From IMG/VR virus record IMGVR_UViG_2734482579_000003: a stretch of 16,647 nt of DNA; one strand, written 5' to 3'. How positions within the stretch are numbered: the first letter of the stretch is position 1; the number at the start of each line of letters is the position of its first letter. This DNA comes from a virus (lineage: Duplodnaviria; Heunggongvirae; Uroviricota; Caudoviricetes). The notes beneath the pieces are model-generated. The model saw only the letters and a program-made list of their open reading frames with translations. It had not been told where the DNA came from and searched no databases. This document shows, piece after piece, positions 11,074-16,647 of the stretch. The translations under genes and the position numbers were made by a program.

Positions 11074-14754
<3,681 letters not shown>

Positions 14755-14780
<26 letters not shown>

Positions 14781-15300
14781 TCAGCAACCCCGGTATCAGT
14801 TCATCCAGCGCGGCTGCTTTGTTCATGGCTTTGATGATATCCCGTTTCAGGAAATCAACATGTCGGTTTTCCAGTTCCGGAAAACGCCGCTGCACCGACA
14901 GGGGGATCCCGTCGAGAATACTGGCAATTTCACCTGCGATCCGCGACAGCACGAAAGTACAGAATGCGGTTTCCACCACTTCAGCGGAGTCTCTGGCATT
15001 TTTCAGCTCCTGTGCGTCGGCCTGCGCACGCGTAAGTCGATGGCGTTCGTACTCAATAGTCCCTGGCTGGAGATCTGTCTCGCTGGCCTGCCGCAGTTCT
15101 TCAACTTCCCGGCGCAGCTTTTCGTTCTCAATTTCAGCATCCCTTTCGGCATACCATCTTATAACGGCGGCAGAGTCATAAAGCACCTCATTACCCTTGC
15201 CACCGCCTCGCAGAACGGGCATTCCCTGTTCCTGCCAGTTCTGAATGGTACGGATACTCGCACCGAAAATGTCAGCCAGCTGCTTTTTGTTGACTTCCAT
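14755..15300 (-). CDS. Nu1: Terminase small subunit Nu1 (181 aa)
   Basis: ORF 14755..15300, 181 aa, same length as lambda gpNu1. N-terminus MEVNKKQLADIFGASIRTIQNWQEQGMPVLRGGGKGNEVLYDS (winged-HTH DNA-binding domain). Sits directly downstream of cosB. Confidence 0.95.
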
Positions 15301-15321
15301 TGTTCATTCCACGGACAAAAA

Positions 15322-15441
15322 CAGAGAAAGGAAACGACAGAGGCCAAAAAGCCCGTTTTCAGCACCTGTCGTTTCCTTTCTTTTCAGGGGGTGTTTTAAA
15401 TAAAAACATTAGGTTACGGCGAAGAAGAACGGAAACGCCTT
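15322..15441 (-). other. cosB: three Nu1-binding R elements (R1 about 15322..15340, R2 about 15365..15385, R3 about 15422..15441) with an IHF-type AT-rich site (about 15390..15412) between R3 and R2
   Basis: Repeated GGAAACG / CGTTTCC cores (cagagaaaggaaacgacag, cctgtcgtttcctttcttttc, gaagaagaacggaaacgcc) in the same arrangement I remember for lambda cosB. The AT-rich gtgttttaaataaaaacatta lies between R3 and R2. Confidence 0.75.
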
Positions 15442-15477
15442 AAACCGGAAAATTGTCATAAATAGCGAAAACCCGCG

Positions 15478-15489
15478 CGCCTTCCGCCC
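15478..15489 (-). other. cosN cohesive-end region, variant sequence relative to canonical lambda
   Basis: Flanks match lambda (GCGAAAACCCGCG on one side, CGTAACCTG on the other). The 12-nt core reads CGCCTTCCGCCC on the plus strand, i.e. GGGCGGAAGGCG in lambda orientation, versus canonical GGGCGGCGACCT as I recall it. Confidence 0.6.
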
Positions 15490-15505
15490 CGTAACCTGTC
15501 GGATC

Positions 15506-15519
15506 GCCGGAAAGGACCC
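15506..15519 (-). other. cosQ-like element (packaging termination signal)
   Basis: Sequence ccggaaaggaccc about 17-30 bp from cosN on the right-end side corresponds to the GGGTCCTTTCCGG segment of lambda cosQ. Boundaries are approximate and from memory. Confidence 0.45.
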
Positions 15520-15525
15520 GCAAAA

Positions 15526-15540
15526 TGATAATAATTATCA
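15526..15540. promoter_or_regulatory. Perfect 15-bp palindrome TGATAATAATTATCA matching the Fur-box 7-1-7 consensus
   Basis: Read directly from sequence: TGATAAT-A-ATTATCA, perfect dyad symmetry, immediately distal to cosQ. Confidence 0.4.
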
Positions 15541-15688
15541 TCTACATGTCACAACGTGCATCTACGCCATCAAACCACGTCAAATAATCAATTATGACGC
15601 AGGTATCGTATTAATTGATCTGCATCAACTTAACGTAAAAACAACTTCAGACAATACAAATCAGCGACACTGAATACAGGGCAACCTC

Positions 15689-15922
15689 ATGTCAACGAAG
15701 AACAGAACCCGCAGAACAACAACCCGCAACATCCGCTTTCCTAACCAAATGATTGAACAAATTAACATCGCTCTTGTTCAAAAAGGGTCCGGGAATTTCT
15801 CAGCCTGGGTCATTGAAGCCTGCCGCCGGAGACTGTGCTCAGAAAAAAGAGTTTCGCCTGAAGCAAACAAAGAAAAGAGTGACATTACTGAATTGCTCAG
15901 AAAACAGGTTAGACCAGATTGA
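15689..15922 (+). CDS. Small ribbon-helix-helix (Arc/MetJ/CopG-like) putative DNA-binding protein, 77 aa
   Basis: ORF 15689..15922. After a basic Arg/Thr-rich N-terminal tail, the segment NIRFPNQMIEQINIALVQKGSGNFSAWVIEACRRRL fits the RHH beta-strand / helix / Gly turn / helix pattern. No strong Shine-Dalgarno; start uncertain. Confidence 0.5.
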   Translation: MSTKNRTRRTTTRNIRFPNQMIEQINIALVQKGSGNFSAWVIEACRRRLCSEKRVSPEANKEKSDITELLRKQVRPD

Positions 15923-15979
15923 AGCAATTTAGATAATCGTGCAGACTACGCCCCCTCATATCACATGGAAGGTACTACA

Positions 15980-16390
15980 ATGGCTCAGGTTGCCATTTTT
16001 AAACAAATATTCGATAAAGTGCGAAATAATTTAAACTATCACTGGTTTTATTCTGAACTAAAACGTCACAATGTCTCACATTACATTTACTATTTAGCCA
16101 CAGAGAATATTCATCTTGTTCTTGAAAACGATAATACGGTTTTAATAAAAGGACAGGGTAAGGTTGTAAATGTAAGATTTTCAAAAAATAAATGCCTTAT
16201 AGAAGCCACCTTAAAAGGATTCAAATCAGGAGAGTTATCATTTTACGAATACAGGAAAAATCTTGCTACAGCAGGGGTTTTCAGATGGATTACAAATATC
16301 CACGAAAACAAAAGGTATTACTATACCTTTGATAATTCATTACTCTTTACTGAGAACATACAGAACACTACACAAATATTTCCGCACTAA
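15980..16390 (+). CDS. YbcV/DUF1398-like hypothetical protein (136 aa), AT-rich moron-type gene
   Basis: Tracked ORF 15965..16390; the ATG at 15980 ([11 protein letters not shown]...) is preceded by GGAAGG at good spacing and gives 136 aa. The gene is visibly AT-rich compared with the GC-rich structural genes. Resemblance to E. coli DLP12 YbcV is from memory, not alignment. Confidence 0.6.
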
Positions 16391-16398
16391 ATCATAAC

Positions 16399-16427
16399 GT
16401 CCGGTTTCTTCCGTGCCAGAACCGGAC
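16399..16427. terminator. GC-rich hairpin (8-bp perfect stem gtccggtt/aaccggac, extendable to 10 bp with one bulge) just after the YbcV-like stop
   Basis: Inverted repeat read from sequence. No clear U-tract on the plus strand; a moderately U-rich stretch follows on the minus strand. Confidence 0.3.
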
Positions 16428-16558
16428 TCGCTGGCATGATGAAATATGTGTACCCGGTAACCCCGGTGTGCATCGTTTTTGATTATTCCCGCACACTCGC
16501 GCAGAAGGAGTTCCCCGTCGGGCTACGGTCTCTGTTAATACGGGAATACGGCGACGAT

Positions 16559-16647
16559 TGGATTTGCCCCTATATTTCCAGACATCTGTTATCACTTAAC
16601 CCATTACAAGCCCGCTGCCGCAGATATTCCCGTGGCGAGCGATAACC
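16559..16647 (-). mobile_element. IS2: Terminal ~90 bp of an IS2 insertion sequence (right inverted-repeat end), continuing beyond the window
   Basis: From 16559 the sequence tggatttgcccctatatttccagacatctgttatcacttaacccattacaagcccgctgccgcagatattcccgtggcgagcgataacc is the reverse complement of the IS2 right end as I recall it (...GGTTATCGCTCGCCACGGGAATATCTGCGGCAGCGGGCTTGTAATGGGTTAAGTGATAACAGATGTCTGGAAATATAGGGGCAAATCCA). Confidence 0.8.
16570..16647 (-). CDS. insD: IS2 transposase OrfB (InsD) C-terminal fragment, 5'-truncated by window edge
   Basis: Minus-strand translation of 16647..16573 gives ...GYRSPREYLRQRACNGLSDNRCLEI followed by stop TAG at 16572..16570, matching the IS2 OrfB C-terminus from memory. 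Confidence 0.7.
   Translation of the reverse strand, partial: GYRSPREYLRQRACNGLSDNRCLEI

Follow-up and report, generated by a model that had tools for sequence, protein, structure and literature searches.

Phage-borne DNA can be tied to the host Fur regulon by a consensus Fur box, as it is at the Fur-regulated stx1 promoter. A second example is the fur box that precedes sitABCD in lambda phages of the intestine (PMC6969025); in both cases the box stands at the promoter of a cargo operon and moves with that operon. Two Fur sites of Escherichia coli K-12 are named after nohA and nohB (now nohD), genes homologous to Nu1 that lie in the cryptic prophages Qin and DLP12, respectively. In the table of strong Fur clusters of Chen et al. 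(2007, PMC2189734), nohB ranks third, with 25.3 bits and four overlapping Fur sites in a 28-bp cluster, while nohA, at -233, reaches 22.3 bits, and 150 nM Fur shifted a nohA (Qin) oligonucleotide in a gel. Both had already come to light in a Fur titration assay (Stojiljkovic et al. 1994) and through in vivo cloning (Vassinova and Kozyrev 2000). The literature assigns them to the Nu1 homologue, and the divergent small genes ynfO and ylcI were annotated only later.

In E. coli CFT073, Fur ChIP-exo gave a peak, P53 (1424699-1424711), in iron-replete cells only (Gao et al. 2023, PMC10164565). The peak is intergenic, between the unit TU53 and the terminase unit TU54, and the genes that flank it on both sides belong to the CFT073-specific Fur regulon (PMC10164565).

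Here we analyzed a stretch of 16,647 nucleotides from a virus of the Caudoviricetes (hereafter the window), in which an initial annotation had pointed out a Fur-like palindrome between the packaging signals and two small plus-strand genes. The features discussed below are collected in Table 1.

Table 1. Features of the window around the palindrome.
Feature	Position	Strand	Basis
gpA ORF, full-length	12855-14780	minus	
Nu1 terminase small subunit, nohA/nohD homologue, full-length ORF	14755..15300	minus	Pfam Phage_Nu1, E = 2.4e-101
Cohesive end, 12-nt (cosN), variant GGGCGGAAGGCG	15478..15489	minus	alignment with K-12 prophages and variant count
cosQ, packaging-termination signal, GGGTCCT on the minus strand	15513..15519	minus	mapped from phage 434
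Extended conserved element AAAnGATAATnATTATCAnTTnCA	15523..15546	.	column conservation, 18 context representatives
Predicted sigma-70-like promoter GTGACA-16-TATCAT	15525..15552	minus	consensus scan, 10/12
Core Fur box, 7-1-7 palindrome TGATAATAATTATCA	15526..15540	.	exact match, K-12 orthologues
Perfect FNR consensus TTGATCTGCATCAA, likely activator site	15615..15628	plus	single match in the window, 0.01 expected
DUF3950 (YnfO/YlcI family, RHH-like) gene	15689..15922	plus	Pfam PF13132, E = 2e-20
DUF1398 (YdfO/YbcV family) gene	15965..16390	plus	Pfam PF07166, E = 3.3e-43

Sequence of the palindrome and its orthologues

The palindrome consists of two 7-nt arms with perfect complementarity around a central A. 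It fits all 14 specified positions of the 7-1-7 Fur consensus TGATAATnATTATCA, of which it is the sole exact match in the window, and a count by hand gave 16 of 19 positions for the classical 19-bp consensus GATAATGATAATCATTATC at 15521-15539. When up to three mismatches were allowed, the window held four matches against 0.14 expected (none of 200 shuffles gave four), three of the four being the palindrome itself or its overlaps. The perfect match and 15-bp dyad that the initial annotation had reported are thus borne out in arms and coordinates, as is the spacing to the RHH start, given there as about 150 bp and measured here as 149 bp to the ATG. Its suggestion of an equivalent palindrome in lambda proved right as well: TGATAATCATTATCA lies at lambda 48452-48466 and differs from the window copy only in the central base.

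Alignment of both K-12 loci to the window showed that the DLP12 copy is identical to it throughout the palindrome and for ~150 bp beyond; the DLP12 Fur site as a whole differs from the window site by a single base, which lies 13 nt to the left of the centre, and the Qin nohA copy has another base at the centre of the palindrome. The box lies upstream of Nu1, and its centre (15533) is 233 bp from the Nu1 ATG (15300), the same distance as the -233 of Chen et al. for nohA; counted from that paper's own nohA coordinates, the published position coincides with the palindrome centre. The window and the noh sites therefore share orthologous DNA with the same layout, 233 bp upstream of a Nu1 homologue and 6 bp beyond cosQ. 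They differ in that the K-12 copies sit in decayed prophages, whereas the window has full-length Nu1 and gpA ORFs.

Judged by its sequence, the palindrome is a genuine and very strong Fur operator, the orthologue of the K-12 nohA and nohB sites. A high score under a Fur model can be given by proxy, from the published 25.3 bits of the near-identical DLP12 site and 22.3 bits of the Qin site, and the matrix scoring and Fur gel shift that the initial annotation had proposed have in effect already been carried out on orthologous K-12 DNA (Chen 2007). The identification as a Fur box holds, and the suspicion that the site might be conserved rather than new agrees with the known nohA and nohB sites. 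The accompanying belief that it had never been described functionally does not stand, given the published K-12 Fur sites and the ChIP-exo peak on the CFT073 homologue. As a Fur site, the element has been known through the K-12 cryptic prophages for thirty years, and its recognition here adds little.

Conservation extends beyond the core. Among the 18 context representatives of the survey described below, the columns outside the selected positions that are conserved comprise AAA at -4..-2, A at +14 and T16/T17/C19/A20, and the natural variants of the box retain the Fur-consensus positions. The extended element probably represents overlapping Fur hexamers.

Surroundings of the box at cos

The region around the box is the lambda packaging region in reverse orientation, with the chromosome end at 15490, 36 bp from the box. 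We placed cosQ through the cosQ feature annotated in the phage 434 record (OL657227). The palindrome begins 6 bp beyond it, outside the 7-bp GGGTCCT, and the offset between the two varies from 4 to 9 bp among phages. Since cosQ is defined as 7 bp (PMC4669245), the circumstance named in the initial annotation as telling against a Fur role, that the palindrome might be part of cosQ, does not apply: the box is separate and starts at 15526.

The cos region itself showed some further peculiarities. The cohesive end GGGCGGAAGGCG differs from that of lambda, GGGCGGCGACCT, at positions 7, 8, 9, 10 and 12; these changes outnumber those that Feiss et al. cite for the variants in N15 or Gifsy-1, all of them fall in the half of the cohesive end reported as change-tolerant, and the same variant is found at three further surveyed loci (L061, L062 and L124). 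In cosB, a long inverted repeat at 15319-15386 (GAAAGGAAACGACAG ... CTGTCGTTTCCTTTC) comprises Nu1-binding R sequences. An Rfam scan of 15250-16647 returned nothing but sub-threshold microRNA-like matches on this inverted repeat, which we discarded as a hairpin artefact or noise.

Linkage of the box to cos across phages

To survey cos regions, public genomes and viral contigs were scanned for cosN and cosQ only (CCGCCCCGTAAC-N17-AGGACCC), the box not being used. Across the 97 unique cos regions obtained, the highest score for GATAATNATTATC in the 25 nt that follow cosQ was bimodally distributed: 66 regions reached at least 9 of 12 positions and 41 all 12, while matches of at least 10/12 occurred in 0.7% of windows drawn at random from these loci. 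Between cosQ and the box lay 4 to 9 nt. Clustering of the 300 nt beyond the box gave 33 contexts, four of which were spurious GC-rich matches; among the ~29 left, the box was present in 18 mutually unrelated downstream contexts and missing from ~12 (~40%), where a terminator hairpin often took its position. In box-containing contexts the nearest real gene often points toward cos, as do spanin genes abutting it. On the other side of cos, the box was found with 14 different cosB/Nu1 types, and identical types occurred both with and without it (U0, 49/5; U5, 5/3; U7, 1/4).

The box thus travels with the cos module and not with the RHH gene or other cargo genes, in contrast to the sitABCD and stx1 boxes: whatever the cargo, it moves with cos. 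Together, the results of the survey argue against an operator of the RHH protein, against an operator dedicated to plus-strand cargo and against an essential role in packaging.

This bears on several readings of the palindrome. That it serves as operator of the adjacent RHH (DUF3950) protein, as the initial annotation had offered in second place, would suit RHH proteins, which recognize short repeats close to the genes that encode them, and a gene of this kind indeed starts 149 bp downstream of the box. It is nonetheless the least credible of the readings considered here. A DUF3950 gene lies within 1.5 kb in only 2 of the 18 box contexts, being absent from the other 16, and 39 of 113 box-containing sites lack one over the same distance; at one locus (L056) an IS element parts the box from the RHH gene, with which the FNR box and the leader remain. 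The palindrome is therefore neither tied to the RHH gene nor placed at its promoter.

A second reading takes the palindrome for a packaging element recognized by terminase, an extension of cosQ whose likeness to a Fur box is due to chance. It adjoins cosQ and is conserved together with cos, and both belong to the shared equipment of lambda-type cos phages. The differences weigh more: cosQ is a 7-bp motif at a fixed distance from cosN, whereas the palindrome is separate from it, lies 4-9 bp away and is dispensable in many natural cos regions, about 40% of the contexts lacking it, including some of the same cosB type. Occurrence of the same cosB types with and without the box implies that it is no packaging requirement, and its absence from ~12 of 29 lambda-type contexts shows that it is not universal in cos regions. 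Moreover, Fur binds the orthologues in vitro and in vivo, and the variants keep the Fur-consensus positions. We regard this explanation as largely refuted already and as very improbable.

Fur might also be bound at the box in the service of cos itself and not of a promoter, either shielding cos against stray transcription or tagging the DNA end that is packaged last and injected first, such that iron would affect packaging or early infection. The constant proximity to cosQ (4-9 bp in 18 downstream contexts and with 14 cosB types), next to DNA that is unrelated beyond the box and has no co-conserved promoter, speaks for such a role. Against it stand the identical cosB/Nu1 types with and without a box, the ~12 lambda-type cos contexts that do without, and a distance from cosQ that is not fixed, unlike the spacing between cosQ and cosN, which Wieczorek and Feiss are said to have found critical in 2001. 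The searchable literature gave no experimental hint of it either. Our searches for a Fur box beside cos returned a single match, the unrelated sitABCD box. We consider this role improbable.

The segment that carries the box is common. The 201 bp at 15490-15690, spanning cosQ, the Fur box and the leader, occur in 3918 of 5426 complete E. coli genomes (72%), with a median of one copy per genome and up to eight; many strains hold several extra very-high-affinity Fur sites in this form.

Two groups of surveyed loci deserve separate mention. Four viral contigs (L041, L071, L073 and L103) carry two lambda-type cosN-cosQ matches in opposite orientation, ~0.5-0.8 kb apart, both without a Fur box and one facing head-like genes; they may be satellites or PICI-like elements. 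Ten genome contigs (L007, L008, L010, L015, L016, L019, L022 and L024-L026) have a lambda-identical or cosmid-like cos in unrelated assemblies (Shewanella, Oceanobacillus, Raphidiopsis, Archangium and others), one on a 48,542-bp low-coverage contig and another with a TetA-like ORF beside cos. All are almost certainly contaminants of the assemblies, derived from lambda or a vector.

Fur occupancy and fur-dependent expression in vivo

Evidence from living cells comes from CFT073 and from K-12. In the CFT073 locus, a cosQ-adjacent box, CGAGAATAATTATCA, lies at 1424694-1424708, directly beneath P53, and past the box the DNA shows no relation to the window. Deletion of fur raised expression on both sides, with log2 ratios (fur deletion/wild type) of +2.95 and +2.33 for TU53 and of +2.13 and +1.34 for TU54 on the terminase side (PMC10164565). 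This derepression could be indirect, through induction of the prophage in the fur mutant. The CFT073 locus resembles the window in the placement of the box relative to cosQ and cosN, and adds iron-replete binding and derepression of both flanks to the comparison; it differs in that its box is degenerate in one arm and that the gene of a small secreted-looking protein replaces DUF3950 and DUF1398. The same locus (L004; NC_004431.1 1423200-1426200) has a TonB-family protein gene at 1423654-1423980, just upstream of cos, and the secreted-looking ORF, which is Cys-rich, begins with MKIRNILAISLATSS and points away from cos. Both are possible iron-related cargo genes.

The picture in K-12 is different. 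The initial annotation had advised consulting Fur ChIP data over lambdoid prophages, and this gave support in CFT073, through P53 on the homologous box, and none in MG1655, whose ChIP-exo peak list (PMC10164565) has no peak at the Qin or DLP12 copy. Multi-mapping of reads as the cause of the missing peaks was not convincing to us, as several differences within 30 bp of the box set the two K-12 copies apart. MG1655 hardly expresses ydfO, ybcV, nohA and nohD, and loss of fur leaves their levels the same; in W3110, ynfO, ydfO, ybcV, ybcW and nohD go down in the deletion, not up. Particular to W3110, and not seen in MG1655, is wild-type expression of ynfO, ydfO, ybcV, ybcW, ylcI and appY that declines 4- to 40-fold once fur is deleted (PMC10164565 Dataset 3). 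For these DLP12 and Qin genes, the change runs in the direction opposite to that expected of repression by Fur.

An anti-FNR ChIP-seq peak centred at 1634625, the position of the Qin box, is listed among ten 'FNR peaks at Fur-repressed operons'; something was bound at the Qin box in K-12, and the peak is ambiguous as to what. For transcription starts at the K-12 copies, we found no gene-name matches in SMRT-Cappable-seq supplements and no coordinate-prefix matches in Cappable-seq supplements.

Promoters at and beyond the box

In our consensus scan, the minus-strand element GTGACA-16-TATCAT was the only promoter-like element of the window to overlap the box. Its -10 hexamer lies in the left arm and its spacer inside the box, and it reads through cos to Nu1. 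This geometry, as predicted, fits classical occlusion by Fur as well as the historical assignment of the sites to nohA and nohB. The -10 of lambda and Qin is the weaker TATCAC, and the predicted promoter is specific to the subgroup of the window and DLP12. Across the 18 contexts, no conserved sigma-70 promoter was found in either direction, the best scores lying only ~1 sd above background. We also tried the conserved TATCA(N) together with TTGCA/CTACA as -10 and -35 elements, and rejected them: the base after TATCA takes all four nucleotides and the spacings fit neither direction, such that the conservation fits Fur hexamers better than a promoter. As to output, then, the box overlaps a predicted, non-conserved minus-strand promoter, with derepression in CFT073 and none in K-12.

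The plus-strand genes likely have a promoter of their own with an FNR box. The FNR box TTGATCTGCATCAA accompanied the RHH gene at all 72 loci with that gene, and is also found in lambda (48364-48377), Qin, DLP12 and 434. Downstream of it, a -10-like GACAAT at 15650-15655 implies a start ~26 nt before the DUF3950 ATG, relative to which the FNR box would be centred at about -41.5. This arrangement suggests that genes of the ynfO/ydfO type may be induced anaerobically, and the published anti-FNR ChIP peak attributed to 'nohA' may be due to this FNR box. The Fur box lies ~130 bp upstream of this best candidate start, too far for simple occlusion.

These results set limits to the first proposal of the initial annotation, that Fur controls the plus-strand RHH and YbcV-like genes. 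Direct repression of DUF3950 and DUF1398 from the box would make them lysogen genes induced by iron starvation, and has several points in its favor: the box is upstream of both genes on the same side of cos, loss of fur raises the non-terminase-side unit of CFT073 5- to 8-fold, and Fur boxes accompany other cargo genes of lambda phages, sitABCD among them. The box is, however, 149 bp before the ATG and ~130 bp from a candidate start that has its own FNR box, and no plus-strand promoter overlapping it passed the scan. Nor does deletion of fur derepress the K-12 genes ynfO, ydfO, ylcI and ybcV, and 16 contexts without these genes retain the box, the nearest gene pointing toward cos in several of them. 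On balance, we find such repression unlikely.

Literature on the function of YnfO, YlcI or DUF3950 yielded nothing informative. With regard to other regulators, AACAGGTTAGACCAGAT at 15903-15919, at the DUF3950 3' end and ahead of DUF1398, closely resembles the PdhR SELEX site at the Qin ynfO-ydfO junction, AAcaGGTcagACCAgaT (PMC7660256). In a pdhR mutant, ybcV and ybcW mRNA were ~10-fold lower (PMC7660256).

Discussion

The best explanation overall, and to our mind a probable one, is that the palindrome is an operator for host Fur belonging to the cos module, where it gates a terminase-side promoter in the prophage. The identity with known sites, the binding of Fur and the derepression at a homologue, and the linkage to cos are matters of observation; the promoter under control and the benefit to the phage are what we infer from them. 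In an iron-replete cell, Fe2+-Fur dimers would occupy the 7-1-7 core and the flanking hexamers, ~24-28 bp in all (15523-15546), on an element that is part of the lambda-type cos module and not of the neighboring cargo. In the window, bound Fur would occlude the predicted minus-strand promoter, which would read via cosQ, cosN and cosB into Nu1-A. With plentiful iron, Fur would in this way silence weak local transcription of the terminase side from within the prophage and, in some phages, the divergent outward unit too. The plus-strand DUF3950 and DUF1398 genes would more probably be driven by their own FNR-type promoter, ~115-130 bp further on.

A broader claim would be that selection maintains the Fur box as a component of cos, independent of cargo, in lambdoid phages of several enterobacterial genera, by which either terminase-side prophage transcription or the handling of the last-packaged, first-injected end is gated by iron status. 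We put this forward as a doubtful possibility. If it were true, prophages, with up to eight copies per genome, might measurably titrate Fur.

The aspects of the locus that go beyond published work are mildly novel only, namely the retention of the box 4-9 bp from cosQ, whatever lies beyond, by lambda-type phages of several genera and the possible effect of many copies on the Fur response of the host. Databases attach the site to nohA and nohB, whereas its true affiliation is with cos, in live lambda-type phages that include lambda. Since 72% of complete E. coli genomes contain the 201-bp segment, with as many as eight copies, the regulatory output of the box or the titration of Fur could affect how lysogens respond to iron limitation.
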